Shown: positions 11,653-26,781, counted from the first letter of the stretch. The stretch is DNA of 56,494 bases from Candidatus Nomurabacteria bacterium (GCA_943356675.1 CALRFQ010000003.1:1-56494); one strand, 5' to 3'. The notes: generated by a model not told the origin, from the sequence alone. A program made the numbers and translations.

Positions 11653-12609
11653 TTATTTCTTTAAATTATTTTCGATTCGTTCTACGATTCCTTGAGAGAA
11701 ATCATGATCAAAAGCTTTACCAGTAATAGTTTCATAAATCTCTATATAACGGCGAGATAGTTCGGCTACGAGTTCTGGAGGAGCTTCTGGCAAAACTTTA
11801 TCATTGTATGGATCACAATTTTCTTTGAACCAAAGTCGTAGAAATTCCTTGTCGAAATATTCTGGCTCAAGATCTTGGTCGAAACGCTCTTGGTATGTGT
11901 TTGCCTTCCAGTAGCGAGAAGAGTCTGGAGTGTGTATTTCATCGATAAGAGTTAATTTTCCATTTTCGTCTAGTCCAAATTCATACTTAGTATCGACAAG
12001 AATCAAACCTTTCGTGTATGCAATTTCCTGACCACGCTTAAATAATTCTATCGCTACCTTCTCCACTTCTTCAATCAATTCTTTTTTCATAAGACCTTCT
12101 GCCACAATTTCTTGCGGAGATAAAGTACGGTCATGTTCTTCAAACTTCGTCGATGGAGTAAATACTGGTTCTGGCAATTGCTGATTCTTGTGCATTCCTT
12201 CAGGTAGAACGAAGTTTCCGAAATCTCTTTTACCATCCTTGTAGTGTGTCCAAAGTGATGTGGAAGTTACACCAGTAATGTATCCACGCACAATTGCCTC
12301 AATAGGAAGAGGCTTGCAAACCTTCGCCACTAGAACAGCTGGGTCTGGAATACTTACTACGTGATTCTGTATGATGTCCTTTGTATTTTCAAACCAAAAA
12401 GCACTAATGAGATTCAAAACTTCACCCTTGAAAGGCACAAAGGCAATAATACGATCAAATGAAGAATGCCTGTCTGTGGAAACTAAAGTAATTTTATCTG
12501 GTGATACATATATATCTCGGACCTTCCCTACTTTCTTTTCACCCAAACCTTTCAAGTTTGTCTCCTTCAGCACGTCGCCAATATGTTCTTTGATTAAATC
12601 AATATTCAT
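11653..12609 (-). CDS. purC: SAICAR synthetase (long type)
   Basis: GKVRDIY, TDRHSSFD, EAIVRGY, FTPSTK, LVDTKYEFG, DEIHTPDSSR, DKEFLR. Confidence 0.95.
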   Translation of the reverse strand: MNIDLIKEHIGDVLKETNLKGLGEKKVGKVRDIYVSPDKITLVSTDRHSSFDRIIAFVPFKGEVLNLISAFWFENTKDIIQNHVVSIPDPAVLVAKVCKPLPIEAIVRGYITGVTSTSLWTHYKDGKRDFGNFVLPEGMHKNQQLPEPVFTPSTKFEEHDRTLSPQEIVAEGLMKKELIEEVEKVAIELFKRGQEIAYTKGLILVDTKYEFGLDENGKLTLIDEIHTPDSSRYWKANTYQERFDQDLEPEYFDKEFLRLWFKENCDPYNDKVLPEAPPELVAELSRRYIEIYETITGKAFDHDFSQGIVERIENNLKK

Positions 12610-12728
12610 CCCGTTAGAGATAGGAAATCTTTAGATTTCCGTACCTTATTATTATTGTTAATATATCTTCTATAATACCATTTTTAAACTTCTCACGTAA
12701 GACATAACTAAAAATCTCTAACGGGAGA
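12610..12728. mobile_element. Element family B, copy 1: inverted-repeat-bounded insertion at the purC start codon
   Basis: CCCGTTAGAGAT (12610-12621) / ATCTCTAACGGG (12714-12725); CAT on both sides (12607-9, 12729-31); near-identical ends at 26634-26755. Confidence 0.75.
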
Positions 12729-12732
12729 CATA

Positions 12733-13773
12733 TTATTTTAAAATTACTTTTTTATTACCATTAATAATTTGACCAATTTCATAAATACTAAAATTTGGAT
12801 AATCTTTTAGTATAGTTTCGATTTTTTCTTTTTCACTCTTCGGCACGATAAGTATAAGTCCAATTCCCATATTGAAGACTCTATACATTTGCTCTGTAGG
12901 CACATCCCCCACTTTTTGCATATAAGGAAAGATCGGAAGCATTGGCCAAGTATTTAAATTTATTTCAGCATCGAGATCTTTCGGAAGCACACGTGGAATA
13001 TTCTCTATAAATCCTCCGCCAGTAATATGCGCAATTCCGCGGATATCAATTCCTTTTGAAAGCATATCAAGGACCGGCACAGAATAATTCACATGTACTT
13101 TAAGTAGAGCTTCCCCTACTGTCATTCCTAGCTCAGGTACATTTGTATTCACATCGAGCTTGCCTATATCAAAAAGTATTTTACGAGCAAGCGAGAATCC
13201 ATTTGTATGTAATCCTGAAGATGGAAAGCCGAGGAGAATATCTCCTTCTTCGATTTTCTCTCCTGTAATAATTCCAGATTTTTCTACTACTCCTGTAATT
13301 ACTCCAGCAATATCATGCTCACCTTGTGCATATACTCCTGGCATTTCTGCAGTTTCTCCACCGATGAGTGACACACCGTTTTCTTTACAAGCTTTCGCCA
13401 TACCGCCCACCATTTGAGCCATTACTATAGGGTCGAGCTTATCGTGCGCTACGTAGTCGAGAAATGTGAGAGACTTGGCTCCCATAGCAAGGAGGTCATC
13501 ACAGCAGTGATTCACAATGTCTTGCCCTACTGTGTCGTACTTATTCATCATTCTTGCTACAGAGAGCTTCGTGCCCACACCATCGATACTCTGCACGAGC
13601 ACAGGGTTCTTATAGTTTTTAATTATTTCAGATAAATCATAAAGCCCACCGAAAGAGCCAATGCCGGTAAGCACAGCTTTCGTATGAGTCCCTGCCACAT
13701 CACCTTTCATAAGGCGCACCGCCTCATTCCCCGCATCAATGTTTACTCCTGACTCACTGTATAGATCACTCAT
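12733..13773 (-). CDS. purM: AIR synthetase
   Basis: YSESGVNID, GSFGG, DGVGTK, GGETAEMPG, SSGLHTNGFS, HITGGG, FNMGIG. Confidence 0.96.
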   Translation of the reverse strand: MSDLYSESGVNIDAGNEAVRLMKGDVAGTHTKAVLTGIGSFGGLYDLSEIIKNYKNPVLVQSIDGVGTKLSVARMMNKYDTVGQDIVNHCCDDLLAMGAKSLTFLDYVAHDKLDPIVMAQMVGGMAKACKENGVSLIGGETAEMPGVYAQGEHDIAGVITGVVEKSGIITGEKIEEGDILLGFPSSGLHTNGFSLARKILFDIGKLDVNTNVPELGMTVGEALLKVHVNYSVPVLDMLSKGIDIRGIAHITGGGFIENIPRVLPKDLDAEINLNTWPMLPIFPYMQKVGDVPTEQMYRVFNMGIGLILIVPKSEKEKIETILKDYPNFSIYEIGQIINGNKKVILK

Positions 13774-13777
13774 AATA

Positions 13778-14299
13778 TTATTTCGCTAGATAATTTTTAT
13801 AACCGATTTCTTCCAATTTCTTTCCTTTAGCTTCCACTTCCGAACTCATTTTATTTTTGTAGGCTATAAATTTTTCATTCAAATCACTGTCAGATAGTGC
13901 GAGGATTTGTATAGCGAGTATTCCAGCATTCTTAGCAGCATTTATGCCCACTGTAGCGACTGGCACTCCGGGTGGCATACCCACAGTAGAGAGAAGTGAA
14001 TCAAGTCCGTCGAGAGTCTTCGCTTTCACTGGCACACCGATAACAGGAAGTGTCGTGAGTGAAGCACACACACCAGCAAGGTGTGCTGCACCGCCAGCAG
14101 CTGCAATAATTACCTTTATACCGCGGTCTACTGCTCCTGTAGCATATGCGTGAACCACACTTGGCGCACGATGAGCTGAGGCGACTGTCATTTCAAAAGC
14201 TACTCCAAACTCCTCAAACACCTTAGCTGAATCAGACATTACCTCCAAATCTGAGTCCGAACCCATAACAATACTAACTAATGGTTTATTTGTATTCAT
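13778..14299 (-). CDS. purE: N5-CAIR mutase / AIR carboxylase
   Basis: MGSDSD, SAHR, AGGAAHLAG, PVIGVP, MPPGVPVATV. Confidence 0.96.
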   Translation of the reverse strand: MNTNKPLVSIVMGSDSDLEVMSDSAKVFEEFGVAFEMTVASAHRAPSVVHAYATGAVDRGIKVIIAAAGGAAHLAGVCASLTTLPVIGVPVKAKTLDGLDSLLSTVGMPPGVPVATVGINAAKNAGILAIQILALSDSDLNEKFIAYKNKMSSEVEAKGKKLEEIGYKNYLAK

Positions 14300-14330
14300 A
14301 CGGTGATTTTATCATATAGGGACAAAAAAG

Positions 14331-14357
14331 AAAAAGAGCCGTATCAGGTGCTCTTTA
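14331..14357 (-). terminator. Probable terminator after purD
   Basis: AAAGAGC/GCTCTTT stem with a T-run on the - strand. Confidence 0.55.
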
Positions 14358-14407
14358 GCTATTGTATGACCAAAAAACATTGGTTATCTTAATCGTACCA
14401 TTCCATA

Positions 14408-15703
14408 TTATTTAAGCAAGGAAAGTGCCTTTTTACCTATGTCTTTTCTGTACTGCATTCCTTCAAATGAAATTTTTGCCACAGCTTTGTAGGCTTTCGC
14501 AAGCGCTTCTTCAAGAGTCTCACCGATAGCTGATACTCCGAGGACTCTCCCGCCGTTTGTAATAAGCTCACCGTTTTCATTCAACTTCGTGCCGGCGTGG
14601 AAAACCACGATATCATTATCCTGCTCGGCATCACCTATACCACTTATCACTTTCCCCTTCTCGTAATCTCCAGGATATCCACCAGAGGCCAAAATTATCG
14701 TGCAAGCAAAACCTTCATTCCAATCCACCTTATACATACTCAATTCTTTATTTACAATTGCATTAAAAATTTCTAGCAAATCAGTTTTGAGGAGCCTCAT
14801 ATAAGTCTGAGTTTCTGGGTCACCGAAGCGTGCATTGTATTCTAAAATCTTCGGACCATCTTTCGTAAGCATGAGCCCTGGATACAGCACACCTTCGAAA
14901 GGCACACCATCGTGCTCCATACCTACAAGAGTAGAAAGGATTATAGTATTTTTTATTTGCATAAATGTTCCTTCGTCCACAAATGGAAGCGGTGCAATAG
15001 TGCCCATGCCACCAGTGTTGAGACCAGTGTCCCCCTCACCAATTCTTTTATGATCTTGAGAAGGTGGAAAAGCTTGAGAAGATACTCCATCTGAAAATGC
15101 GTGAGTTGAAATTTCAGGACCCTCCATAAATTCTTCTATCACCACTTCCTCTCCTGCATTACCAAACTTTTTATTTACTAGCATATCTTCCAGCGCAGTT
15201 TTCGCCTCATCTAGTGTCTCGGCAATTATCACACCCTTACCAAGTGCAAGACCAGAAGCCTTCACCACTATCGGTAGAGACATGCTTTCCATATATTTAA
15301 TTCCATCTTCAAAATCTGTGACCACTTTGAATTTCGCAGTTGGGAGATTGTGCTCTTCCATGAACTTCTTCGAGTAGGCTTTGGACCATTCGAGCTTCGC
15401 TGCATCTTTCGTTGGACCCCATATTCGGAAGTCGGACTTCCGAAATTCATCAACGATGCCAAGTGCAAGTGGATCATCGGGAATTGCGAGAGTGAGATCT
15501 ATTTTTTCTTTCTTTACGAATTCAAGTAGGCCACTTATATCAGTCGCTTTGATATTCACATTCGTGCCGATATTGGCAGTGCCAGCATTCCCCGGCGCGA
15601 AGTAAAGCACAGGATTATGCTCGGACTGTTTTAACTTCCAGCCGATAGAATGCTCCCTTCCCCCACTACCAATTATTAAAACTTTCTGATTATTTAATTG
15701 CAT
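14408..15703 (-). CDS. purD: GAR synthetase
   Basis: GSGGREH, APGNAG, LEWSK, VVKASGLALGKGV, QDHKR, NTGGMG, EYNARFGDPE, NGGRVL. Confidence 0.97.
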   Translation of the reverse strand: MQLNNQKVLIIGSGGREHSIGWKLKQSEHNPVLYFAPGNAGTANIGTNVNIKATDISGLLEFVKKEKIDLTLAIPDDPLALGIVDEFRKSDFRIWGPTKDAAKLEWSKAYSKKFMEEHNLPTAKFKVVTDFEDGIKYMESMSLPIVVKASGLALGKGVIIAETLDEAKTALEDMLVNKKFGNAGEEVVIEEFMEGPEISTHAFSDGVSSQAFPPSQDHKRIGEGDTGLNTGGMGTIAPLPFVDEGTFMQIKNTIILSTLVGMEHDGVPFEGVLYPGLMLTKDGPKILEYNARFGDPETQTYMRLLKTDLLEIFNAIVNKELSMYKVDWNEGFACTIILASGGYPGDYEKGKVISGIGDAEQDNDIVVFHAGTKLNENGELITNGGRVLGVSAIGETLEEALAKAYKAVAKISFEGMQYRKDIGKKALSLLK

Positions 15704-16308
15704 AATTCTTCCAAGACTTTTATGTATAATCTATTTTCCATTTGTTTCAATCGCACATATAAAGATTCCACATTATCACCTTCCTCAATCTTTTCAAACA
15801 CTCTGCCGAGCACTGGACCGAAGTCGAAATTGAGAGTTAGAAAATGTATTGAAGACCCAGCATAAGTACTTTTTTGATTTATAAAATTTTGTATCGCTTT
15901 ATCAGTGAGCATGCCTTTATTCCAAAGTGCCTCTGTACCATCAGGATTCTCTACTACCCCATCCACAGAATCTGGTATGAGTCCTGGGTGCAAATTTAAA
16001 ATCTTATTTGGATATGCCAATATAACCTCATCTAGAATGATTTGCTTCCAGCCTGCAAGAGCAATAAAATCTGGATTTATTTCCTGCAACTTTTGAAGAA
16101 GTAATTCCTTTTTTTCACAAATTTCAATTTTTACATTATGAGCTTTTGCATGGCTCAGTGCTTGTGCTTGATCAGTATCTGAAATCACAGCACAAACTTC
16201 TGAACTAATTAATCCAGTAGCGACCGCTTCCAGTATCGCTTTCAAATTTGTACCAGTACCAGTATTTGAAACTAATATAACTAATTTTTTTTTATTGTTT
16301 TGGGACAT
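15694..16308 (-). CDS. purN: GAR transformylase (formyl-THF dependent), divergent
   Basis: GTGTNLKAI, LAGW, NLHP (catalytic N, H), DFGPV; operon position. Confidence 0.88.
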   Translation of the reverse strand: MSQNNKKKLVILVSNTGTGTNLKAILEAVATGLISSEVCAVISDTDQAQALSHAKAHNVKIEICEKKELLLQKLQEINPDFIALAGWKQIILDEVILAYPNKILNLHPGLIPDSVDGVVENPDGTEALWNKGMLTDKAIQNFINQKSTYAGSSIHFLTLNFDFGPVLGRVFEKIEEGDNVESLYVRLKQMENRLYIKVLEELCN

Positions 16309-17728: not shown

Positions 17729-17734
17729 AATATT

Positions 17735-17860
17735 AAATGATTTGTAATAAAATAAATCTTGCGAATACCCTCTTCGCAGGCTGACGAGCCGAGAAAAGCA
17801 ATTTTTCAGTAGAAAAATATGCGTGGGTTGAGCAAGGTTGTATTTTATGTAAAATCATTT
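17735..17860 (+). repeat. Structured element family A, copy 2 (purQ stop / purF start)
   Basis: AAATGATTT/AAATCATTT, TAAAATA/TATTTTA and AATCTTGC/GCAAGGTT stems; GGCT-GACG-AGCC; GCA-ATTTTTC-AGTA-GAAAAAT-A-TGC. Confidence 0.85.
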
Positions 17861-18634
17861 TTTAAAGTAATTAATAGCATTTTTGAATAATAGCATACCT
17901 ATTCCTTCATCTCCCAGCTTCTGTTTCTTTCTCTTGGCAATTTCTTTCTTGAGTTGGAAGTCTGGCCTGTGGTGGAAAAACATTGCACGCTCTGGATGAG
18001 GCATCATGCCGAGAACCTTACCACTCTCGGATAGTACTCCTGCCACATCATGCATTGCACCATTTGGATTTGCTTTAAGATTCTGGAATTCGCACATTTC
18101 ACCTTTAGTATATTTAAAAGCAATTTGCTTATTCTTCATCATCTTTTTATATTCCTTCTCGTCTATTATATATCTGCCTTCTCCGTGCGCGATAGGTAGT
18201 GAGATTTTCTTGATGCCTTTGAGCCATGGGCTACTCCCCACCACTTCCATATCCACCCAGCGGTCGATATACATTGCACTCGCGTTGTGAGCGAGAGCTC
18301 CAGGAACTAATCCAAGATTTGTGATAATCTGAAAGCCATTACAAATTCCTATTGTGAGAGTGTCGCGAGAGATAAATGAATCGAGCTCCATTTGTAAATA
18401 ATTTTTAAATTTATTGGCAAAAGCCTTTCCACTACCTGTATCATCTCCAAATGAAAATCCTCCTGGGAAAGCAAGAATATTGTAAGCTTCCAAAATTTTC
18501 GGATTCTCAATCAAATCATTAATATGCACAATGTCTGCTTTGCCTCCCGCACTCTCGAAAGCAAACTTAGTCTCCTCTTCGCAGTTGAGCCCATATCCAG
18601 ACATTATTATTACTTTTACTTTATTGTTTTTCAT
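17855..18634 (-). CDS. purQ: FGAM synthase glutaminase subunit
   Basis: GLNCEEET, FPGGFSFGD, GICNGFQ, PIAHGEG, NPNG, MMPHPER. Confidence 0.96.
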   Translation of the reverse strand: MKNNKVKVIIMSGYGLNCEEETKFAFESAGGKADIVHINDLIENPKILEAYNILAFPGGFSFGDDTGSGKAFANKFKNYLQMELDSFISRDTLTIGICNGFQIITNLGLVPGALAHNASAMYIDRWVDMEVVGSSPWLKGIKKISLPIAHGEGRYIIDEKEYKKMMKNKQIAFKYTKGEMCEFQNLKANPNGAMHDVAGVLSESGKVLGMMPHPERAMFFHHRPDFQLKKEIAKRKKQKLGDEGIGMLLFKNAINYFKK

Positions 18635-18635: not shown

Positions 18636-21617
18636 TTATTTATTTTTCTCAGAGAATGAATTATAAGCTTTGGCGAGAGTGTCGACTTTTGTATCCACTA
18701 CTTTTTCTTTTCCATTCTTGATTATGAAATTCTTATCCTTAGAAACTTTTCCGATCTTTGAAAGTGCCACGTTTTTCATAACTTTCTCGAAGGCTTTAAT
18801 ATTACTATTCGCTACTGTTACTACTATGCGTCCTTGGGATTCAGAGAAAAGCTTTGCGTCTATATTTGTAGCAATACCGGCGATATCTTTCACATCTACA
18901 TTAAGTCCGAGCATTCCTCCGAAAGATGCTTTCGCAAGTGCTGTAGCAAGGCCGCCAGAAGTAACTGAAATAGCGGAAGCGATGATACCTTTATCGATTG
19001 CACTTTCTAGGGCTTTGTAAGTTGCCATATTTACTTTTGTGTTTACCTTCGGCACATTATTACCAATTGCATTCCCTTCTTTACCTATCATTTTAAAGTA
19101 CTCACTTGCACCAAGCTCATCGTGAGTGCCACCAAGCACATAGATAGCATCGCCAGCAACTTTAAATTCTGGGCTCACAGACTTTTTGAAATCTTTCATC
19201 ACAGAGATTGAAGAGATGAGTAGTGTAGGCGGAATTGAAATTGCCACACTATTACCCTTCTCATCATAGCCTTTGAAATCGTTGAACATACTATCCTTAC
19301 CTGAAATATATGGCGTGCCGTATGCGACAGCAGTGTCGTAGCAAGCACGCATTGCATCTACTAATTGTGCCAAGCGATGTTCGTCATATGAAGAGCACCA
19401 GCAAGTGTTGTCGAGGATTGCGAGCTCGCTAAGCGTAGCACCCGCAGAAACCGCACTTCTTACTGCTGCATCTATCGCACAAGCGGACATATCGTAAGTG
19501 CTGATGTCAGAATATGATGGGTAGAGTGCAGAAGAGAGTACCACGCCTTTTTGTGAAGATAATACTGGGCGAATCACTTGCGCATCAGTATTTATATTTC
19601 CTCGCCCTGAAAGTGGCTTGAGCACGGAGCCAGCTTGCACTTCATGATCATACTGCTCACTTACAAATCTATTGCTTCCTATATTTGCACTACCGAGTAA
19701 ATTGATTAATTCTTTCGTGCGTGAATTTGATTTAGGTAATTTTGGTTCTGCGAATTTCTCTTCTATAAATTTTGTATGGAGCTCTCGCATAGGAAGGCCA
19801 TTGTGAAGGAATTCCATTGGCATATCCATTATCACCTTGCCATTCAGCTTCACCACGCATTTATTACTATTTGTAAATTCACCGATAGCAACAGCAAGCA
19901 CTCCTCTTTTATCCATGAGTTTCTTGAATTCATTCCATTTATCTTTCGGCACAGAAAGTGTCATGCGCTCTTGAGATTCTGAAATCCAAATCTGCCAAGG
20001 AGAAAGGCCTGGGTATTTGAGCGGAACTTTCTCAATATCAACAATCGCTCCCCCGCACTCTTTCGCCATCTCAGCCACTGAACAAGAGATGCCACCTGCA
20101 CCATTATCTGTGATACTATTGTACAAATTCAGATCGCGAGCTTCTTTCACAATTGCATCAGAAAGTTTCTTTTGAGTTATAGGGTCACCTATCTGGACCG
20201 CAGTCGCAGGACTCGCAGAATCAAGCACCACAGATGAGAAAGTCGCACCATGCACACCATCGAGCCCCACCTTGCCACCAACGACTACTATATAATCACC
20301 AGGCTTTGCCTCCTTATCGTGCGAAAGCTTCCCATTTATTTTCCTCGGGATTAGTCCGACAGTTCCAGCGAAGACGAGCGGCTTCCCTCGGTAACGATCA
20401 TCGAAACGCATGAACCCAGAGATAGTCGGAATACCAGAGCAATTTCCTCCTGCATTAATTCCTTTAATTACTCCATCCATAATTCTTTTTGGTGAGAGCA
20501 TTTTATTTTTAAGATTTTTATCTTTGAAAAGTGCTCTCTCATCTTCAGGATAGCCGAAGCAGTATCCATAAAGGTTCGCCACAGGCTTCGCACCCATACC
20601 GAAGCCAATAGTGTCGCGATTAACCCCTACGATTCCAGTGATAGCTCCACCGAATGGATCAAGGGCTGAAGGAGAATTGTGAGTCTCCACTTTATGAGTC
20701 ACCATGTATTTATCATCAAAAATTATTCCACCAGCATTGTCAGAAAATACTGAAATACAAAAATCTTTTTTACCTTTTGCTTTACGAATTGTATTTGTCG
20801 CACCTTTAATATACGTCTTGTATAAGCCAGCCTTAATATCGTCAATTTGATTTGCGAAAATTGTGTGCTTGCAGTGCTCACTCCAAGTCTGCGCAAGTGA
20901 CTCAAGCTCGATATCTGTCGGGTCACGTTTGAGGCTACTGAAAAACTTTTGAATAACTTTCATGGAAGTAAGGTCGAGAGCGAGTGGACCACGGCGAGTG
21001 CCATCTGGATCGAGGATTCCCTCTTTACCGATTTTCATAAGTGCATCGTCTGATAGAGTACTGAGCGGTACAGTAATAAATGCATCTTTCTTAGGCAAAA
21101 TTACTTCAGGAACATAAAGGGACAAATTCGCATTTCCCTTCGGTAATTTTGAAGTCTTAATAATTAAAGAGCGCTCAATAAGAGGATTATGAAGCGAGAG
21201 TGCAATTTTATTCACATCTTCTTCTGTTATAGCGCCAGCGATTAAAAATACTTTAGAAGTATAAACAGCTTCTTTATCCGTAAAAGGCCTAGCAAGTGCA
21301 TCCGCGATTTCTTCCATTACTGTATGAGCCACATTGTCCGTCACGCCCGGTGCATAGCCAATCTCGACGATATAAGAAAAGCCGGACAAATCCGGCAAAT
21401 TATTTATGGAGAAATTCTCCAAGCGTGAGTTTATAAGTTGATTTGCTGACTTCTCTATTTGAGTATCTGACAAATCAGCATTAATAAGATATGAATCAAT
21501 AAACTTAGCTTTCGTTACCTTCCCATTTAAACCAAGAGCGTTCCAAGAATTCGCTGCCACATTTGCACGTGAATCCTCCCCGATTGAAGATACATATATT
21601 CTAGAAATCATACCCAT
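18636..21617 (-). CDS. purL: FGAM synthase synthetase subunit, 993 aa with N-terminal extension
   Basis: QTWSEHCKH, ETHNSPS, PFGGAITG, DNGAGG, SESQERM, SGKDSM, LFSES. Confidence 0.95.
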   Translation of the reverse strand: MGMISRIYVSSIGEDSRANVAANSWNALGLNGKVTKAKFIDSYLINADLSDTQIEKSANQLINSRLENFSINNLPDLSGFSYIVEIGYAPGVTDNVAHTVMEEIADALARPFTDKEAVYTSKVFLIAGAITEEDVNKIALSLHNPLIERSLIIKTSKLPKGNANLSLYVPEVILPKKDAFITVPLSTLSDDALMKIGKEGILDPDGTRRGPLALDLTSMKVIQKFFSSLKRDPTDIELESLAQTWSEHCKHTIFANQIDDIKAGLYKTYIKGATNTIRKAKGKKDFCISVFSDNAGGIIFDDKYMVTHKVETHNSPSALDPFGGAITGIVGVNRDTIGFGMGAKPVANLYGYCFGYPEDERALFKDKNLKNKMLSPKRIMDGVIKGINAGGNCSGIPTISGFMRFDDRYRGKPLVFAGTVGLIPRKINGKLSHDKEAKPGDYIVVVGGKVGLDGVHGATFSSVVLDSASPATAVQIGDPITQKKLSDAIVKEARDLNLYNSITDNGAGGISCSVAEMAKECGGAIVDIEKVPLKYPGLSPWQIWISESQERMTLSVPKDKWNEFKKLMDKRGVLAVAIGEFTNSNKCVVKLNGKVIMDMPMEFLHNGLPMRELHTKFIEEKFAEPKLPKSNSRTKELINLLGSANIGSNRFVSEQYDHEVQAGSVLKPLSGRGNINTDAQVIRPVLSSQKGVVLSSALYPSYSDISTYDMSACAIDAAVRSAVSAGATLSELAILDNTCWCSSYDEHRLAQLVDAMRACYDTAVAYGTPYISGKDSMFNDFKGYDEKGNSVAISIPPTLLISSISVMKDFKKSVSPEFKVAGDAIYVLGGTHDELGASEYFKMIGKEGNAIGNNVPKVNTKVNMATYKALESAIDKGIIASAISVTSGGLATALAKASFGGMLGLNVDVKDIAGIATNIDAKLFSESQGRIVVTVANSNIKAFEKVMKNVALSKIGKVSKDKNFIIKNGKEKVVDTKVDTLAKAYNSFSEKNK

Positions 21618-21664
21618 ATATTAGACTATTTAGACGCCGTTTACAAATGTGATATTATTAAAGA

Positions 21665-23077
21665 ATGATACAACCAGAACTTAAGGTTACAGGATATAGA
21701 GGGGTTTGGGGTGAGAGCCTAAATGAAGATATTTCTATAAGCTTCGGAGCTGCCTTTGCCTCATTTACAAAAGTAGACTCGGGTAAAGAAAATCCCACAA
21801 TTCTCATAGGGCGTGACGGACGCGAAAGTGGAGAGTCTATCGCAAATGCAATTATCCCAGAAATAGAAAAGCTCGGTGTAAATGTAATTTACGGCGATGT
21901 ACTCCCTACCCCTACCATAATGCTTTCTGTAAAAGAGAAAGGTTACGATGGAGCGATAATCATTACCGCTAGCCACAACCCCATAAAATACAATGGTCTC
22001 AAATTCGTCACGAAAGGTGCACGAATGACAAATGAAAGTGAAGTAGAAAAAATAAAAAGTTTTCTAACTAGCGAGCGAGAAAATGTTGTTCCAGGAACCC
22101 TTTCGCAGCGCGACGGCGCGAGAAGAGAAATTTTCCAGCAGGAAAATATTCGTGGTGACGGGAATAACATTTCGAGCGAGCTGATTAACATACATATTAA
22201 TAAAATCCTAGAAAATATTGATGTAGAAAAAATCCGTGCACGGAAATTCAAAATAGCTGTAGATATGATAAATGCATCGGCATGTGTGATAGACCCATAT
22301 TTATTTGAAAAGCTTGGCGTGGAGTATGTAGCGTTGAATGACACACCAAACGGAAAGTTTGCACACGAACCAGAACCAATAGAGCAAAACCTGAAAGATA
22401 TTTGCGCCTTAATGAAAGAAAATAAGTGTGACGTGGGCTTCGCTCACGATCCTGATGCAGACCGCCTCGTAATCATAGACGAGAATGGTGACTACATTTC
22501 TGAAGAATACACTCTCGGCTTCGGTATTGAAAATGTCATGTCAAAGAATCCAAATAGAAATGTAGTGGTGAATATGTCCACTTCGCAAATGTCTGCAGAT
22601 ATTACTGAGAAGTACGGAGGTACTTGCTACCGTACCAAAGTAGGAGAAGCGAATGTTTTCGCTGGTATCGATGAACACGATGCAATCATAGGTGGTGAAG
22701 GAGGCAGCGGATGCATATACCCTACTATAAACAATTGCCGTGACGGATTCGTAAGTATGACTCTCGCACTTGAACTCTTAGCTACGAGAAATTCTACAGT
22801 GAGCGAAATGGTAAATATATTGCCAAAATACTTTATGAAAAAGGATAAGTGGTCTGTGGAAGGAAAAAACACTCTAGAACTATATGAAAAGCTAAAAACT
22901 CATTTCCCAAATGCAAAATATAATATGCTCGATGGCATCCGCCTCGATTTTCCAGACCAATCTTGGATACACATGCGCCCATCAAATACTGAACCAATCA
23001 TCCGAATGTTCGGTGAAGCAAAAACTTCTGAACGCTTAGAAGAACTTTACGCAGAAGCTAAAAAAATAATCTCCTAA
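21665..23077 (+). CDS. Alpha-D-phosphohexomutase (PGM/PMM family) carrying an in-frame repeat insert
   Basis: TASHNP (phospho-Ser), DPDADR (metal), GGEGSG, RPSNTEP. Confidence 0.93.
   Translation: MIQPELKVTGYRGVWGESLNEDISISFGAAFASFTKVDSGKENPTILIGRDGRESGESIANAIIPEIEKLGVNVIYGDVLPTPTIMLSVKEKGYDGAIIITASHNPIKYNGLKFVTKGARMTNESEVEKIKSFLTSERENVVPGTLSQRDGARREIFQQENIRGDGNNISSELINIHINKILENIDVEKIRARKFKIAVDMINASACVIDPYLFEKLGVEYVALNDTPNGKFAHEPEPIEQNLKDICALMKENKCDVGFAHDPDADRLVIIDENGDYISEEYTLGFGIENVMSKNPNRNVVVNMSTSQMSADITEKYGGTCYRTKVGEANVFAGIDEHDAIIGGEGGSGCIYPTINNCRDGFVSMTLALELLATRNSTVSEMVNILPKYFMKKDKWSVEGKNTLELYEKLKTHFPNAKYNMLDGIRLDFPDQSWIHMRPSNTEPIIRMFGEAKTSERLEELYAEAKKIIS
22066..22186 (+). repeat. Structured element family A, copy 3 (in frame inside pgm)
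   Basis: 74-bp core 22090-22163 is 71/74 identical to 23548-23621; GCGC-GACG-GCGC; GAA-ATTTTCC-AGCA-GGAAAAT-A-TTC. Confidence 0.92.
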
Positions 23078-23916
23078 ATTTTAAAGTCTCCGATTTTTGT
23101 TCGCTTGATATGGAGAGCGAGGGCAGGCACTCCTAGAAGGTTGCCTAAGTCATTTGCTATGCTTCTTACATAAGTGCCACTGCCACAATTTATCGTGAGG
23201 GTAACTACTTGAAAGTCTTCCTCCCTAGGTCCAACCTCGGGAGATAAAACCTCTTCCCATTTCGCGAGAATTTCTTCTTGGCGGAAATCGCCTTGCACGG
23301 AACCTATAGAACTTTTAATATACTTATGTAATTTTTCTTTCGTGATTGTTTCCACTTTCTTTATTTCAATACTTTCCACATGCACCTTGTGCTTTGGGAT
23401 TTCTATATCACTTAGTCTTCCCTCTCTAGCCCACTGAAAAAGTGGTTTGCTATTCACAGTGCGAGAAGAATACGGCGGATACGCTTGCTCAAAGTCACCA
23501 GTAAATTTATTTTGTAGAATTTCAGAGAGCGAATGAAGGCACATTGATCCAGGAACCCTTTCGCAGAGCGTCGGCTCGAGAAGAGAAATTTTCCAGCAGG
23601 AAAATATTCGTGGTGACGGGAGTAATGTGTCGAGTGAGCTCTCTTGATTTACCAACCCCATCACATCATATGTATCAGTAGCGAAACCAAAGAGAACTTT
23701 CACTTCGTATTCTTTAGGTAGCATCGTGTATTCATCCTTTTTCATACATTCATCACCGGCAAGAATAAGCAAAAGCCCTTCGGCGAGCGGATCAAGGCGC
23801 CCAGCATATGTAAGGGGTAAAAATTGGTATTCTGACTGCTCCTCCCTCAGCCTACTTAGGGCAGAAAGCGGGGTTTCTCCCATGTTTTTGTAAAAAGGTA
23901 TAATTTGTAGGGGCAT
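23074..23916 (-). CDS. truB: tRNA pseudouridine(55) synthase carrying an in-frame repeat insert
   Basis: YAGRLDPLAEG, KEY, TDTYD, PPYSS, CGSGTYVRS, RTKIG. Confidence 0.92.
   Translation of the reverse strand: MPLQIIPFYKNMGETPLSALSRLREEQSEYQFLPLTYAGRLDPLAEGLLLILAGDECMKKDEYTMLPKEYEVKVLFGFATDTYDVMGLVNQESSLDTLLPSPRIFSCWKISLLEPTLCERVPGSMCLHSLSEILQNKFTGDFEQAYPPYSSRTVNSKPLFQWAREGRLSDIEIPKHKVHVESIEIKKVETITKEKLHKYIKSSIGSVQGDFRQEEILAKWEEVLSPEVGPREEDFQVVTLTINCGSGTYVRSIANDLGNLLGVPALALHIKRTKIGDFKI
23524..23644 (+). repeat. Structured element family A, copy 4 (in frame, antisense, inside truB)
   Basis: AGAGAGC/GCTCTCT terminal stem; GAGC-GTCG-GCTC; same AGCA hairpin as copy 3. Confidence 0.92.
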
Positions 23917-24003
23917 ATTGCCATATTAGCATGGATATGCTACTATACCCACAGGTAGAGGACGCCTCTTATAGGGGTAATCCATCATTTCTATCGCTAC
24001 AAA

Positions 24004-24516
24004 TTGAGAGAACGAATAAACAATCAAATCAGAGCGAATGAGCTCAGAGTCATAAACCTAGACGGTGAAAACCTCGGGGTTTTAAGCTTTAAAGACGCAC
24101 TTGCGAAAGCAATGGAGCAAGGTATGGACTTGATTGAGATATCGCCACAGGCAGTTCCCCCAATAGCGAAGATAATGGATTTCGGTAAATACCAGTACGA
24201 GCAGAATAAAAAGCAAAAGAAAGCAAAATCTGGAGCTCATAAAACTGAAACGAAGTCGGTCCAAATAAAGATCGGCACTGGAGACAACGACCTAAGCTTG
24301 AAAGCAAGAAAAGCATCCGAGTGGCTTAAGGAAGGACACCGCATTAAAGTGGAATTGTTCCTTTCAGGAAGATCCAAGTACATGGCAGATAATTTTCTTA
24401 GAGAACGTCTTGATAGAGTCTTGCACCTAATTACAACAGAGTACAAGATTGCTGAAGATTATAAGAAGGGACCGAAAGGACCAACAATCACGATTGAACG
24501 TGATACAAAAAAGTAA
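24004..24516 (+). CDS. infC: Translation initiation factor IF-3 (non-AUG start)
   Basis: RINNQIRA, LIEISP, IMDFGKY, KEGHRIKV; upstream of rpmI-rplT; TTG start. Confidence 0.95.
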   Translation: MRERINNQIRANELRVINLDGENLGVLSFKDALAKAMEQGMDLIEISPQAVPPIAKIMDFGKYQYEQNKKQKKAKSGAHKTETKSVQIKIGTGDNDLSLKARKASEWLKEGHRIKVELFLSGRSKYMADNFLRERLDRVLHLITTEYKIAEDYKKGPKGPTITIERDTKK

Positions 24517-24533
24517 TTAATTATAAATAATAT

Positions 24534-24719
24534 ATGAAAACAAAAAAGTCACTTACAAAGCGCATAAAGGTTACAAGAAAGGGCAAACTTCTTGCTCGTA
24601 AGCCAGGTTTCAATCACTTCAATTCGAAGCAATCAAGAACAAAGCAGCTCGCAGGTCGCAAAGGAACACAGCTTGACCTCTCAAACAAGGTTAAGAATAC
24701 ATTTTTCCAAAACGTTTAA
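24534..24719 (+). CDS. rpmI: 50S ribosomal protein bL35
   Basis: MKTKKSLTKRIKVT; infC-rpmI-rplT order. Confidence 0.95.
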   Translation: MKTKKSLTKRIKVTRKGKLLARKPGFNHFNSKQSRTKQLAGRKGTQLDLSNKVKNTFFQNV

Positions 24720-24742
24720 TTAATAAAATTTAGAAATACTAT

Positions 24743-25087
24743 ATGACAAGAGTTAAAAGAGGAGTTATAAAGAATAAGAGACGAAAGAATATACTATCCC
24801 AGACTAAGGGTTACCGTTTTGGACGCAGTACAAAAGAGGCACAGGCTAAAGAAGCTATAATGCACGCAGGAGCATACTCATTTGCTCACCGCCGCGACAA
24901 GAAGGGTGATGCACGTAAGCTATGGGAAATCCGCATAAATGCAGGACTACGCACACAAGGCATGACATACAGTAAGTTCATGGGTGCACTTAAAGCGAAG
25001 AACATCATTGTTGACCGCAAAATACTTTCAACTTTTGCAAAAGATCATCCAGAAGTATTCACTCGCATAATCGCTCAAGTTAAATAA
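24743..25087 (+). CDS. rplT: 50S ribosomal protein bL20
   Basis: MTRVKRG, KGYRFGRS, RRDKKGDARKLW, DRKILS. Confidence 0.97.
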   Translation: MTRVKRGVIKNKRRKNILSQTKGYRFGRSTKEAQAKEAIMHAGAYSFAHRRDKKGDARKLWEIRINAGLRTQGMTYSKFMGALKAKNIIVDRKILSTFAKDHPEVFTRIIAQVK

Positions 25088-25090
25088 CAC

Positions 25091-25126
25091 AATATAAAAC
25101 ACCCTCTATCGAGGGTGTTTTATATT
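25091..25126. terminator. Intrinsic terminator after rplT
   Basis: AATATAAAACACCCTC-TATC-GAGGGTGTTTTATATT perfect 16-bp stem. Confidence 0.85.
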
Positions 25127-25256
25127 ACTTAAAACTTAATAAAACCTAATTGAGATATAATTATAATTCCAACAAGAATTATAACAAGACAAAGAAGCAT
25201 AATATACTGAATTTTTCGAAGTTTTGGATTGTCTGAGATCTTTAAATACGACATAT

Positions 25257-26633
25257 TTATTTACAATCAAGCATTATCACATCCCCTGCCATTGGGCTCT
25301 CGGTCTTCACACCGAGGTTGTCTGTGAGCTTTTGAGCAAGGAAAAGCGCTGCCTTCGGCTCACCCATAACTGTAAATACTTTCTTCACATGCTTCGCCAT
25401 TGGCTCTACGAACTCCACTAGGTGATCAGAATCCTTATGACCTGAATAACCACTAATCTTCTCTATATGAGCACGGACTGGGATATCTTCACCTTGAATA
25501 CGGAGCTTCTTACTACCTTCCTCTATCTGCCTGCCTAGAGTACCTACAGCTTGGTAGCCGATAAGTAACAAGGTGTCATTTTCATTTGGAAGATAATTCT
25601 TCTCGTGGTGGATTATGCGCCCACCATTACTCATGCCAGATCCCGCCATTATTATCTTTGGATTTGGAACATTTAAAATAGCTTTCGATTCATCAGTCTC
25701 AAGAGTAAGTTTTAGACCTTTAAAATTAAATATGTCATCCCCACTCGCTATTATCTTCTTGGCAGTTTCATTGAAATACTTTTCATTCTGCTTGTAAACA
25801 CGATCGAGCTTAATCGCAAGCGGAGAATCTAAGAATACTGGCATGACTGGCACAATCTTGTTCTCTATCATTTCATTCATTTCGAAAAGGAGCTCTTGAG
25901 TACGCTCGAGAGAGAATACTGGGATCATAAGTGTGCCACCGCGGACATAGTTCTCATTTATGATTTCTGCTAATCTCTTCTTTCTTATTTCACGATCTTC
26001 ATGGTTGCGATCCCCATATACTGATTCCATTATAAGATAATCTGCATCGTCTACCACTTCAGTATCGCAAAGCAGTGGTGATGGAGAATTACCAAGGTCA
26101 CCCGTAAATACAATCTTCTTGCCGTTGTATAAAATCTCAAGCATTCCTGAACCAAGAATGTGCCCAGAATCTTTAAAAGAAAATTGGAAACCGTGATCCA
26201 CATTTATAGATTCGTGGTATTCCACCCCTTCCCATATATTCATAGCAGTTTTAATGTTCTCTGCTGTATATATCTCGGCAAGGTGATGCACTATATCTTT
26301 CTGAAGTAAATGAGCAGTGTCCTCGAGCATTAACTGTGCAATGTCTTTCGTAGGTATTGTAGAAATAATTCTACCCTTAAACCCATCTGCAATTATCTTG
26401 GGAATGCGGCCTATGTGATCCACATGTGAATGTGTAATGAAAAGGATATCAATCTCAGCTGGATTATATGTAAATGGAGCCCAGTTTAGCTCGTCTGCAA
26501 TGCTCTCACCTTGCACTAGACCGCAATCTATCAAAAACTTTTTTCCATTACCTTCTAATAAGAAATTGGCGCCAGTAACTGTGCCTGCGCCGTTTGCAAA
26601 TGTGAGCTTAAGCTGTGTATCTTTAATATCCAT
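25257..26633 (-). CDS. MBL-fold beta-CASP ribonuclease
   Basis: DCG, THSHVDHIGR, SGHILGS, FTGDLG, MESVYG, GSGMSNGGR, YSGH. Confidence 0.92.
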   Translation of the reverse strand: MDIKDTQLKLTFANGAGTVTGANFLLEGNGKKFLIDCGLVQGESIADELNWAPFTYNPAEIDILFITHSHVDHIGRIPKIIADGFKGRIISTIPTKDIAQLMLEDTAHLLQKDIVHHLAEIYTAENIKTAMNIWEGVEYHESINVDHGFQFSFKDSGHILGSGMLEILYNGKKIVFTGDLGNSPSPLLCDTEVVDDADYLIMESVYGDRNHEDREIRKKRLAEIINENYVRGGTLMIPVFSLERTQELLFEMNEMIENKIVPVMPVFLDSPLAIKLDRVYKQNEKYFNETAKKIIASGDDIFNFKGLKLTLETDESKAILNVPNPKIIMAGSGMSNGGRIIHHEKNYLPNENDTLLLIGYQAVGTLGRQIEEGSKKLRIQGEDIPVRAHIEKISGYSGHKDSDHLVEFVEPMAKHVKKVFTVMGEPKAALFLAQKLTDNLGVKTESPMAGDVIMLDCK

Positions 26634-26755
26634 CCCGTTTAGAGATAGGAAGTCCTAAGACTTCCGTACCTTATTAATTATTGTTAATATTTCTATCTAA
26701 GTTTTGATTTTTATACTGCCCGATAAATACATAACTGAAAATCTCTAACGGGAGC
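26634..26755. mobile_element. Element family B, copy 2: insertion at the beta-CASP gene start codon
   Basis: CCCGTTTAGAGAT...ATCTCTAACGGG, CAT at 26631-3 and 26756-8; hairpin GGAAGTC-CTAA-GACTTCC. Confidence 0.75.
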
Positions 26756-26781
26756 CATACTTATATTATAGTATAAAAATG

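Follow-up and report, generated by a model that had tools for sequence, protein, structure and literature searches.

Putative MITE-type insertion elements that rebuild start codons in a Candidatus Nomurabacteria genome, and their relatives in other phyla

Two related inserts in a 56,494-nt stretch of Candidatus Nomurabacteria DNA (the window, meaning the whole stretch analysed) are, with high probability and judging from sequence alone, non-autonomous MITE-type insertion elements of ~100-130 bp with inverted-repeat ends (TIRs), whose last base rebuilds the start codon of the downstream gene. They belong to a widespread family that is apparently undescribed; no earlier description was found in the literature.

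Two copies in the window

The first copy lies between purM and purC and the second at the start codon of a beta-CASP gene, the flanking genes being identified by family match (AIRS for purM, SAICAR_synt for purC and Beta-Casp). No further copy is present within the whole window. The features are the following:

12609..12726, minus strand: copy 1 of the element, between purM and purC, 118 nt long when its terminal T..A pair is counted; L213 and the near-identical strain L212 lack it
12609..12621, minus strand: copy 1 gene-proximal TIR, ATCTCTAACGGG-A on the minus strand; base 12609 is the element's final base and the A of the purC ATG
12714..12726, minus strand: copy 1 gene-distal TIR, T-CCCGTTAGAGAT on the minus strand
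12623..12640, minus strand: copy 1 P2 hairpin, GGAAATC-TAAA-GATTTCC; a 1-nt bulge at 12622 divides it from the proximal TIR
12605..12608, minus strand: copy 1 right target duplication TGAA, made up of TG from the purC start codon and two further nucleotides
12727..12730, minus strand: copy 1 left target duplication, now TGTC through decay, where the empty site has TGAA
12708..12731, minus strand: copy 1 short upstream ORF (uORF) MSPVRDF-stop, opening at the original purC ATG (12729-12731), 1 nt past the purM stop (12733-12735)
26633..26753, minus strand: copy 2 of the element, 121 nt long, on the beta-CASP start codon (gene at 25257-26633); missing from L207 and L208
26633..26646, minus strand: copy 2 gene-proximal TIR, one nt longer through an insertion (ATCTCTAAACGGG-A on the minus strand); base 26633 serves as the A of the beta-CASP ATG
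26741..26753, minus strand: copy 2 gene-distal TIR
26648..26665, minus strand: copy 2 P2 hairpin, GGAAGTC-TTAG-GACTTCC
26629..26632, minus strand: copy 2 right target duplication TGGA
26754..26757, minus strand: copy 2 left target duplication TGGC; the target is TGGA
26711..26758, minus strand: copy 2 uORF MAPVRDFQLCIYRAV-stop, opening at the original ATG
26765..26770, minus strand: TATAAT box 6 nt 5' of the original beta-CASP ATG, as would be expected if the mRNA were leaderless; the functional ATG is now 128 nt away

The end cores are CCCGTTAGAGAT at 12610-12621 and ATCTCTAACGGG at 12714-12725 in copy 1, and CCCGTTTAGAGAT at 26634-26646 (one extra T) and ATCTCTAACGGG at 26741-26752 in copy 2; chance would not be expected to give two ~116-nt units with exact 12-mers at either end. 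The copies show 81% identity over element and flanks and have GTACCTTATTA in common, and their interiors are 76% identical, while copy pairs from different genomes reach 70% at most. The hairpin stems differ by a true compensatory change, GGAAATC/GATTTCC in copy 1 versus GGAAGTC/GACTTCC in copy 2. On the coding strand, copy 1 reads TAA-T-ATG-TCT-(CCCG..CGGG)-ATG-AAT-ATT and copy 2 reads TATAAT-ATAAGT-ATG-GCT-(CCCG..CGGG)-ATG-GAT-ATT. The first-pass annotation had described the inverted ends, the compensatory hairpin, the shared run and this coding-strand layout, all of which were confirmed, as were both uORFs by translation. The TAA-T-ATG spacing that it reported elsewhere is present at purC-purB and at a pair of ORFs of 993 and 259 aa (18636-21617 and 17855-18634), which it named purL-purQ; these names were not checked by family.

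Empty sites, ends and target duplication

Strain L212, whose purC product is 98% identical to that of the window and which is identical in 70 of 70 bases upstream, shows a purM-purC junction reading ...AAAATAAT/ATGAATATC, which is the window sequence minus 122 nt with an empty TAA-T-ATG. L213 also lacks the element at the purC site, and most of the purC orthologs from metagenomes (n=66) have the empty site. L207 and L208, with beta-CASP products 88 and 84% identical, respectively, read TATAAT-ATAAAT/ATGGATATT, an empty TATAAT-N6-ATG. Both empty arrangements are those that the first-pass annotation had obtained by removing one ATG plus the insert. Furthermore, interior identity has a median of 0.665 between copies of the same genome versus 0.57 between copies of different genomes, and some same-genome pairs reach 0.98 and 0.99. 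The empty alleles and the same-genome similarity meet the MITE criterion of dispersed copies with evidence of movement.

The family was scanned in one genome per species with a pattern that required exact 10-nt ends, and taxon labels are those of the metagenome-assembled genome (MAG) records. At least 120 element loci were found, labelled Patescibacteria, Omnitrophota, Planctomycetota and others; the family is thus not limited to this genome or to the candidate phyla radiation (CPR). Its members are 100-130 nt long, with an AT-rich, fast-diverging interior and no ORF of their own apart from incidental uORFs, which meets the criterion of a short, non-coding element. The criterion of TIRs is also met: among the matches listed, 130 copies give the consensus Y-CCCGTTAGAG...CTCTAACGGG-R with a TIR of 12-13 bp, whose inner edge carries RY (Y-CCCGTTAGAG(RY)...(RY)CTCTAACGGG-R). 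The terminal pair covaries (UA in 24 sequences, CG in 16) and, among the matches listed, is Watson-Crick in 67 of 67 gene-adjacent and 58 of 62 other copies.

Positions -5 to -2 equal +2 to +5 in 81-88% of the 67 gene-adjacent copies, and -1 equals +6 in just 19. The target-site duplication is 4 bp, as required of a MITE, and is intact in 83 copies among the matches listed: TGAA in 27, TGGA in 10 and TGAG in eight of the T..A type (n=50), and TAAA/TTTA in 16 of the C..G type (n=33). In Patescibacteria it is TGAA, TGGA or TGAG, and in other phyla mainly TAAA/TTTA. Comparison across the family shows a target of the form TNNA, a 4-bp staggered site duplicated upon insertion. The T preceding CCCG and the A at the start of the downstream ATG pair with each other and belong to the element itself, as its outermost bases. 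The first-pass annotation had proposed a 3-bp ATG duplication plus KCT within a target T-ATG-RATATT, which is equally parsimonious for the window's two copies alone. Because the duplication is 4 bp family-wide, KCT corresponds to two bases of the duplication that have decayed, followed by the first base of the element; the duplication is TGRA, the element supplies the A or G, and the target is A/TGRR. The left duplications of both window copies are imperfect, with matches at two of four (TGTC vs TGAA) and three of four positions (TGGC vs TGGA), the former despite a flank identical in 70/70 bases to that of the empty strain L212. A rebuilt A/TGAA site can be struck again, which explains the tandem arrays that are present; some copies lie away from genes, and both orientations occur.

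Start-codon placement and the gene-proximal hairpin

Copies are not placed at random relative to ATGs, in agreement with the initial reading: among the matches listed, 68 of 130 (all phyla) lie at 0 nt from an ORF start. Direct abutment to an ORF start is found in 57 of 79 Patescibacteria copies (72%), two of 18 in Omnitrophota and one of eight in Planctomycetota, again among the matches listed; only the start-codon habit, unlike the family itself, is CPR-specific. RTGRR-flanked copies stand at ORF starts in 61 of 75 cases, versus 39% expected from a census of RTGRR sites in the window. The purC start is occupied by five other element variants with different, co-varying TIRs, the rplQ start is occupied in L028, L040 and L054, and the typA start in L013 and L106 in opposite orientations; these three start codons have been struck independently.

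In the Patescibacteria lineage, with T..A termini, the duplications are nearly always TGAA, TGGA or TGAG, corresponding to the A/TGRA of a start codon. With A as the element's last base, or G in the sister lineage, A or G plus TG stands at the right junction, and the ORF keeps a start codon with its N-terminus unchanged. Several copies read ATGAAC/../GTGAAA, in which the start codon is turned into GTG. The claim that the host protein stays intact holds, as Pfam alignments begin at residue 1-4 of rebuilt-start ORFs (acetate kinase, glutamine amidotransferase and the TypA GTPase domain), and the GTG-started acetate kinase (L074) and amidotransferase (L082) ORFs align from residue 2-4. At the left junction the old ATG is retained and has become the start of a short uORF (M-x-P-V-R-D...); at ATGA overlaps this junction also retains the TGA stop of the upstream gene. 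An upstream start codon is lacking in 13 of the 67 gene-adjacent copies, and therefore a uORF from the duplicated ATG is not obligatory; 37 of the 67 insertion sites are at most 30 nt from the stop of a long upstream ORF. Sister lineages insert in frame into the cleaved prepilin leader, with the prepilin G/FT cleavage site as the signal.

The start-codon bias in Patescibacteria would probably arise from an (A)TGRR sequence preference together with purifying selection. We infer that dense genomes that lack Shine-Dalgarno (SD) sites and whose initiation is leaderless or stop-start-coupled would tolerate few insertions, those that restore the start codon among them. In the window genome, an SD-like motif was found at four of 54 window ORFs, and many show TATAAT-N6-8-ATG or TAAT-ATG.

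Next to one end, the element shows a GC-clamped hairpin (ACGG-stem-loop-stem-CCT) whose sequence varies while its pairing is kept, near-perfectly Watson-Crick (227 of 245 pairs). Among the matches listed, this end is gene-proximal in 43 copies and distal in three, and it is gene-proximal in six of six copies at genes on the locally minority strand. When copies are oriented by the gene alone, 25-29 of 67 have a perfect hairpin of at least 6 bp at 13-14 nt from the proximal end, against a background of ~1-2 at other offsets and five at the distal end. Compensatory changes were found at six of seven P2 pairs, P2 is kept in local-hairpin and long-range versions, and the 1-nt bulge is always on the 3' strand. 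The element fold is stable, with z of -3.1 to -5.1. No excess of G-T over A-C mismatches was found in the stems (4 vs 3 in P1, 5 vs 4 in P2), and thus there is no strand-specific signature of RNA-level selection. No conserved promoter was found inside the element, and neither window copy matched Rfam 15 at gathering score, copy 1 giving only chance-level matches (E at least 5.6).

The 43:3 bias implies that the end with hairpin and TIR must face the gene for expression to survive. Translation of the gene behind the element, itself inferred in this SD-less genome, could use the rebuilt AUG in different ways: ribosomes on the uORF or the upstream gene may open the TIR helix, an RNase III-type cut of the P1-P2 helix may give a near-leaderless mRNA, or initiation may be direct and SD-independent. 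We propose, tentatively and with considerable doubt, that the gene-proximal half (hairpin, 1-nt bulge, 12-nt TIR and terminal A) is a portable 5'-end module that makes the rebuilt AUG usable at the RNA level, and not just a tolerated insertion. Precise processing of the P1-P2 helix would then place the 5' end of the mRNA on or beside the last base of the element; in the limiting case, the element would be removed from the transcript, although no RNA removal has been shown. If true, the transposon would have evolved to be invisible to translation, with the prepilin-leader sister lineages as the protein-level equivalent.

Such an RNA module adds to the MITE explanation and does not exclude it. 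P1, formed by the paired TIRs (12-13 bp), would stack on P2 (7-10 bp) in a ~20-bp helix with an asymmetric bulge, which would be cut in the manner of RNase III or otherwise recognised, leaving the AUG (nearly) 5'-terminal. This remains possible, if less than probable, as there are no transcript data and the presence of RNase III in these genomes is not established. It is favoured by the gene-proximal orientation independent of local strand majority, the fixed hairpin distance, the P2 covariation with its constant bulge side, the stable fold and the leaderless starts of a window genome without SD sites; as a precedent, Correia/NEMIS stem-loops have been proposed as RNase III targets (PMC2229807). 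However, a G-U over A-C excess is absent on the sense strand, and binding by the mobilising enzyme explains the conservation of P1 just as well.

Mobilisation and comparison with known systems

No transposase or recombinase adjoins the element at any of the 120 loci listed, with the same ends or otherwise, no cognate autonomous element was found in 1.17 Mb of element loci (locus sequence, not whole genomes), no long TIR pair enclosing an ORF was found in these loci, and no element was found in viral contigs. The original wording, "MITE-like or recombinase-derived", is supported in its first part by the TIRs, the duplication and the empty sites, and for its second part no recombinase with the same ends was found in the element loci. 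As a MITE, the element would be moved by an enzyme acting in trans, not identified but most simply a DDE transposase of the common cut-and-paste or copy-paste kind.

That a tyrosine recombinase of the Xer/IntI type moves the element, instead of a DDE transposase, is unlikely. Abutted ends form CTCTAAC-GGG-R-TNNA-Y-CCC-GTTAGAG, a palindromic core site with GTTRRR-type arms, displayed exactly at the tandem junctions of L061 and L016; it is comparable with the XerD arm of dif, TTAT-GTTAAAT, and the integron core site, GTTRRRY. The P1-bulge-P2-variable-loop fold recalls a folded attC site, and a host-encoded enzyme would explain both the missing element-linked transposase and the cross-phylum conservation of the ends. 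However, just 4 nt are duplicated in the family, against an exchange over 6-8 nt in the tyrosine recombinases known so far; nothing resembling an arm flanks the duplication at target sites, the half-motif order GTTAGAG...CTCTAAC is reversed relative to attC (RYYYAAC...GTTRRRY), and no integrase gene lies close to the element loci. A single-strand HUH element (IS200/IS605-type or REP-associated RAYT-type), recognised via its hairpin, would fit the near-perfect pairing (227/245) of a variable-sequence hairpin and an insertion orientation fixed relative to an asymmetric target. It is very unlikely, because the element has perfect TIRs and a 4-bp duplication, whereas the IS200/IS605-type family is not known to have either and carries hairpins at both ends; furthermore, orientation follows the gene and not the local strand majority, and no Y1 transposase was found near the element loci. 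Finally, a vertically inherited, non-mobile cis-regulatory leader RNA (riboswitch-like or leader-peptide attenuator) would suit the position immediately 5' of start codons, the stable conserved fold and the short uORFs, but is hardly tenable given a presence that varies between strains with 98% identical purC products, empty-site alleles that contradict it, flanking direct repeats, tandem arrays, copies away from genes and in both orientations, unrelated housekeeping genes downstream and no Rfam match.

Like attC and dif sites, the element has a GTTRRR/YYYAAC motif in an imperfect palindrome of 57-141 nt and, like folded attC, a conserved box, unpaired spacer, variable box and variable loop in that order; something like a dif core would arise only where the ends of two elements, or those of one circle, abut. 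Unlike attC, it shows the reversed half-motif order and 4-bp flanking direct repeats, without integron integrase or cassette array. An integron attC site was rejected by the GTTAGAG ... CTCTAAC order on either strand and the lack of an integrase among recurrent neighbours. IS200/IS605-derived palindromic elements and REPINs, which insert 3' of a fixed tetranucleotide, were rejected because the element has TIRs, duplicates 4 bp and carries its hairpin at one end only.

The transposon piggyBac duplicates TTAA, DDE elements of the piggyBac/IS1380 kind have duplications of 4-5 bp, and their inverted repeats have CCC...GGG tips. The element is alike in its 4-bp TNNA duplication and CCC tips, membership being a lead only, as no transposase was found in the element loci; unlike piggyBac, it has TIRs of a different sequence, and these end in an additional pair, T..A or C..G, that covaries. 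In algae and fungi, introner elements are DNA transposons that co-opt the target duplication to make spliceable introns. The element follows a similar logic: an expression signal is supplied partly by the element and partly by the target duplication, and the insertion is thereby tolerated; however, the signal is a start codon (or the prepilin G/FT site) and not splice sites, the hosts are bacteria, and removal at the RNA level is not shown.

The bacterial MITEs reviewed include Correia/NEMIS (Neisseria), ERIC, RUP and RPE (PMC2229807), with which the element shares a length of 100-200 bp, TIRs, target duplication, lack of coding capacity, end-to-end pairing predicted to fold the transcript into a long stem, and an inferred co-transcription with neighbours. 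RPE and YPAL can be tolerated inside ORFs or contribute a signal peptide (PMC2229807), and the pilin-leader relatives of the element behave similarly. A Correia/NEMIS-type MITE, which has TIRs of about 24-26 bp, TA duplication and an IHF site and occurs in Neisseria only (PMC2229807), was rejected, since the present family has TIRs of 12-13 bp, a TNNA duplication and other hosts. Known MITE families duplicate TA, are limited to a genus or family, and none is reported on start codons (PMC2229807), whereas the element shows a 4-bp TNNA duplication, a last base that rebuilds ATG or GTG, and the same 10-nt ends in MAGs of several phyla.

Two inserts at start codons and their empty sites

The first-pass annotation had proposed a start-codon-targeting element with duplication of the ATG. 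Its two copies are present as described when the sequence is read on the - strand:

12609-12726, - strand: copy 1, between purM and purC, reading on the coding strand TAA-T-ATG-TCT-CCCGTTAGAGAT...ATCTCTAACGGG-ATG-AAT-ATT
12733-13773: AIR-synthase gene purM
11653-12609: SAICAR-synthetase gene purC
26633-26753, - strand: copy 2, in front of the beta-CASP gene, reading on the coding strand TATAAT-ATAAGT-ATG-GCT-CCCGTTAGAGAT...ATCTCTAAACGGG-ATG-GAT-ATT
25257-26633: beta-CASP/MBL gene

The two copies align with 81% identity, and folds of either strand pair the ends and form the hairpin, with z-scores of -3.1 to -5.1 against shuffled sequences. The hairpin shows the one compensated pair already noted, GGAAATC/GATTTCC in copy 1 and GGAAGTC/GACTTCC in copy 2, and the two short upstream ORFs (uORFs) opened by the old ATG, MSPVRDF and MAPVRDFQLCIYRAV, each followed by a stop codon, are real. 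A search including relaxed ends found no further copies in the window, and Rfam gave no match in a gathering-score scan of the whole window or a permissive scan of copy 1. Homologs of purC and of the beta-CASP gene are labelled Paceibacterota, Nomurabacteria or Patescibacteria, which places the window in a CPR/Patescibacteria genome.

Empty sites, predicted in orthologs, were found at both loci. Logan contig L212 (L-numbers denote loci or contigs of other genomes fetched for comparison) encodes a purC product 98% identical to that of the window, with 70 of 70 bases identical upstream of the junction; its purM-purC junction, ...GTAATTTTAAAATAAT/ATGAATATCGATTTAATC, is the window sequence minus 122 nt. 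L213 (82% identical) shows purM-TAA-(few nt)-ATG-purC with nothing between, as do most of the 66 purC orthologs of a metagenome scan, several being exactly AAATAAT/ATG. The closest relatives of copy 2, L207 and L208 (protein 88 and 84% identical), read ...TTTTTATACTATAATATAAAT/ATGGATATTAAAGATACACAG and carry the empty TATAAT-N6-ATG expected before the beta-CASP gene. Because the outgroups are empty, presence of the element is derived at both loci, and these sequence comparisons show both to be insertions for which empty-site alleles exist. At purC its presence is polymorphic between near-identical strains, and presence or absence is a strain-level marker.

Other features were observed in these regions. 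In three purC orthologs (L136, L144 and L146) the purM-purC junction is filled, some 50 nt before purC, by a conserved spacer of a different kind, rich in hairpins (..CAGCC-TAGG-CTGATCCGCC-TTTGG-CGGAAAAA..); it is a further small element at this site, either inserted or terminator-like. The HD-domain gene and the beta-CASP promoter are separated by some 250 nt of non-coding DNA (26775-27044, - strand). This stretch is almost invariant in alignment with relatives that share just 84-88% identity in the beta-CASP protein; it closes with a terminator-like hairpin and a T run, has a fold z-score of -3.9, gave no Rfam match at E <= 1, and is a candidate for an unannotated small RNA gene. An otherwise AT-rich region holds, at 46619-47111, an ORF for a 116-aa DUF559 endonuclease-like protein (46692-47042, - strand, Pfam E 1.2e-31) between 57-nt inverted repeats that are GC-rich and 75% complementary; the whole looks like another small selfish cassette. 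A 97-nt direct repeat (22086-22182 and 23544-23640, 91% identical) and a 36-nt motif containing a small palindrome, CGAGAAGAGAAATTTTCCAGCAGGAAAATATTCGTG, found at four places (17790, 22119, 23577 and 34036, 72-100% identical), may be a second repeat family.

Ends, target duplication and hairpin of the family

The family was scanned by exact match to CCCGTTAGAG-N80-110-CTCTAA(N)CGGG in a collection of one genome per species, with taxon labels as in the MAG records. At least 120 loci were found, all ascertained by exact 10-nt ends, and 130 copies were extracted among the matches listed, the window's two included. The loci listed are labelled as many Patescibacteria lineages (Saccharibacteria, Parcubacteria and others) and as Omnitrophota, Planctomycetota, Elusimicrobiota, WOR-3, Thermodesulfovibrionia and Desulfobacterota-type MAGs; 2.9 million viral contigs gave no match. 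Interiors of the copies listed differ almost completely between genomes (median identity 0.57) and are more alike within a genome (median 0.665, with pairs at 0.98, 0.99 and 0.85 and, for the window's own pair, 0.76), a pattern that proliferation within lineages would produce. The same ends in MAGs labelled Patescibacteria, Omnitrophota, Planctomycetota, Elusimicrobiota and Desulfobacterota suggest horizontal spread or a conserved trans-acting enzyme.

Among the matches listed, the base before CCCG complements the base after CGGG in 67 of 67 copies adjacent to a gene (an ORF of at least 60 codons) and in 58 of 62 others, as either T..A or C..G; being complementary, this terminal pair belongs to the inverted repeat. 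The four bases outside it form direct repeats, positions -5 to -2 equalling +2 to +5 in 81-88% of gene-adjacent copies, while -1 equals +6 in only 19 of the 67 listed. Several copies read ATGAAC/element/GTGAAA, with the old ATG upstream and the gene now starting at a GTG made with the element's terminal G; in the GTG-start ORFs of L074 (acetate kinase) and L082 (glutamine amidotransferase), Pfam aligns from residue 2-4. Models with a 6-bp or 5-bp duplication were rejected on account of these GTG cases and the chance-level agreement of -1 with +6. Together, the complementary ends, the flank repeats and the GTG cases define the element as Y-CCCGTTAGAG...CTCTAACGGG-R and its duplication as 4 bp. 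Among the matches listed, intact duplications are TGAA (27), TGGA (10) and TGAG (8) of 50 for T..A elements, and TAAA/TTTA (16), TGAA (6) and TCAA/TTGA (4) of 33 for C..G elements, with a palindrome-like overall consensus of R/TNNA/Y.

The window copies fit less cleanly, with left repeats TGTC and TGGC against targets TGAA and TGGA, and both have a C at -2 that only three of the 67 copies listed show. This may reflect fast change after insertion or a short 5' extension in a sub-lineage, and two copies cannot decide; the KCT that the first-pass annotation placed after the old ATG is thus not excluded as such an extension, the other reading being equally open. Copies from five genomes (L014, L029, L044, L066 and L119) share (A/G)CTTGC directly outside the distal terminal inverted repeat (TIR), with no right-hand duplication to match. 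A GCTTGC left flank recurs in some Omnitrophota copies, the similarity reaching no further than 5 nt. This flank is unexplained; a sub-lineage may have a longer end, or there may be a second type of target.

The paired TIRs (P1, 12-13 bp) are accompanied at one end only by a hairpin (P2), with consensus (T)AC-GG[stem]-loop-[stem]CC-T followed immediately by the TIR. The 81 hairpin-bearing copies among the matches listed have 68 different stems, nearly always with a loop of 3-6 nt. A second architecture has the same P2 helix as a long-range pairing, CCCGTTAGAGRC-CGC-GGTCGC ... GCGACC-T-GYCTCTAACGGG, again with a single-base bulge on the 3' strand. An alignment of 40 sequences shows compensatory changes in six of seven P2 pairs, and TIR positions left unfixed by the search pattern covary too; these sequences were chosen for having the hairpin, which makes the percentage paired circular but not the covariation. 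When the adjacent gene alone sets the orientation, 25-29 of the 67 copies listed have a perfect hairpin (6 bp or more) that ends 13-14 nt from their gene-proximal end; the same count is about 1-2 at other offsets and five at the distal end. Among the matches listed the hairpin or bulge end faces the gene by 43 to 3. A replication-strand cause was rejected, since the hairpin is also proximal in six of six locally minority-strand genes; the bias is therefore tied to the gene and not to replication direction. Stem mismatches are rare and, comparing G-T with A-C, show no asymmetry towards G-T on the sense strand, so that the data do not show whether the hairpin acts as RNA or DNA.

Start-codon habit and translation of the host genes

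Of the 130 copies among the matches listed, 68 directly adjoin (0 nt between) the start codon of an ORF with 60 or more codons. Copies at ORF starts number 57 of 79 in Patescibacteria, two of 18 in Omnitrophota, one of eight in Planctomycetota and one of 10 in other phyla, and T..A ends occur in 63 of the 79 Patescibacteria copies; the start-codon habit is lineage-specific. Outside Patescibacteria, the C..G-type elements listed lie mostly at G/TAAA/C or G/TTTA/C, away from start codons, and some sit in the G-F-T motif codons of the leader of prepilin-like genes:

L055, 6312-7600: 102-nt copy translated in frame inside the leader, ..KTNGFT-PLESPDEM...KRKHSLTG-FTLVELL
L084, 48-1373: two adjacent pilin-like genes, both starting MEAIMKQFRKRSLTG/FT, with the whole leader from the element's 3' part

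The L055 copy regenerates the G/FT motif, at which cleavage by a prepilin peptidase is inferred by analogy with type IV pilins. What these cases share is that the element enters a gene at its very 5' end and lets the product survive.

Five purC orthologs bear other variants at exactly the same position, whose ends differ but are internally complementary; that of L145 reads CCCGTACGAAAT...ATTTCGTACGGG with the duplication TGGA, and those of L159 and L169 are long-range-stem versions. The start of rplQ (L17), just after rpoA, is occupied by different subtypes in L028, L040 and L054, and that of typA in opposite orientations in L013 and L106. The start codons of purC, rplQ and typA were hit independently. 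Furthermore, the rebuilt site is reusable, as tandem arrays at a single start codon show:

L061, 5473-5710: two elements with only ATGAAT between
L016, 5899-6278: three elements in a row, the middle one with diverged ends CCCGTAGTAG..CACTACGGG

The window contains 605 ATGRR sites, of which 31 are start codons, 49 intergenic and 525 inside genes. If ATGRR were hit at random and genic hits purged, 39% of copies would lie at starts, an expectation from this one genome; 61 of 75 copies among the matches listed (81%) do so (binomial p ~6e-14). From this census, sequence preference with purifying selection explains much of the start bias, but probably not all. At 37 of 67 gene-adjacent sites listed, the stop of a long upstream ORF lies within 30 nt, many being ATGA overlaps. 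In these overlaps the TGA of the upstream gene survives in the left duplication, and ATG is formed by the element's A together with the right duplication, sparing both stop and start. The start codon itself would be the niche of this bacterial MITE lineage, which completes ATG or GTG with a terminal base of its own. Gene callers can mis-start such genes or call the uORFs, and the 10-nt ends are a simple flag.

Shine-Dalgarno (SD) motifs precede only four of the 54 window ORFs, essentially none; instead, many starts either show the layout expected of leaderless mRNAs, TATAAT-N6-8-ATG, or form TAAT-ATG/ATGA stop-start junctions. Among the matches listed, about 10 of 67 sites carry a -10 box spaced as for a leaderless start, and five of 67 an SD-like motif. 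The structured insert separates the AUG from the leaderless promoter or coupling site, and the essential genes rplQ, typA and beta-CASP would be expressed despite 120-370 nt of it before the AUG. Use of the rebuilt AUG is inferred, not shown, there being no transcript or protein data.

The old ATG is in frame through the 5' TIR (M-x-P-V-R-D); the duplication's TGA and the TAG within GTTAGAG close the remaining two frames. Of the three frames at the 3' end, the first runs into the stop of CTC-TAA-CGGG-ATG, the second into the TGA of ATGA, and the third is in frame with the gene. Among the matches listed, 13 of 54 uORFs extend through the entire element to a stop no more than 4 nt from the real start, either the TAA inside the TIR (TAA-CGGG-ATG) or the TGA of ATGA. 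Such uORFs may help by unwinding the TIR helix or delivering terminating ribosomes; processing of the P1-P2 helix or direct SD-independent initiation is about as likely as this assisted opening. Obligatory uORF coupling was rejected, since 13 of 67 copies listed lack any upstream start and the uORF frame is open in 16 of 67, not significantly more often than other frames (9 of 67). None of the 15 in-frame copies listed is open to read-through. An internal outward promoter was likewise rejected: the consensus scan gave chance-level matches in copy 1 and none in copy 2, a TAnnnT motif lies 8 nt before the hairpin in just 13 of 81 copies listed, and covariation of its R and Y positions rules out the TIR as a -10 box; consensus and motif scans thus found no conserved promoter inside the element. 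Translational bypassing was dropped, as the codon after the start often differs between the two copies (AAT vs AAA) and the uORFs end in stops. Filled and empty alleles in near-identical strains are a natural experiment on SD-independent initiation.

Mobilizing enzyme and comparison with known MITEs

Given the TIRs and the short duplication, a trans-acting DDE transposase is the first candidate, but no such enzyme was found. Across 1.17 Mb of fetched loci, in which lone TIRs were listed too, no ORF lies between a pair of ends, and long-range CCCG..CGGG inverted pairs (180-5000 bp) proved to be separate small copies or chance. All-against-all clustering of 727 adjoining ORFs gave no recurrent neighbour family but only housekeeping ones, the ten largest being GT4 glycosyltransferase, ABC transporter, T2SSE, DnaX, Hsp70, RpoA, TypA, LeuRS, FtsW and VirD4-like. 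The transposase or recombinase with the same ends that the first-pass annotation had envisaged was thus not found beside the loci listed.

Mobilization by a tyrosine recombinase remains a minority alternative: the abutted ends form a palindrome with GTTRRR-type arms that recalls dif and integron core sites, but the exchange region is just 4 nt and the targets lack arm-like sequence. Identity with attC sites was rejected, the motif order excluding a true attC. By every testable criterion save a cognate autonomous element, the element is a MITE.

Full-text literature searches and Rfam gave no prior description of the element or of its start-codon behaviour, which is not proof of novelty. In comparison with the described bacterial MITEs Correia, ERIC, RUP and RPE (PMC2229807), the present element differs in its 4-bp TNNA duplication, in identical ends that span MAGs labelled as several phyla, in a start-codon niche where its own terminal base regenerates the codon, and in a gene-oriented hairpin module.
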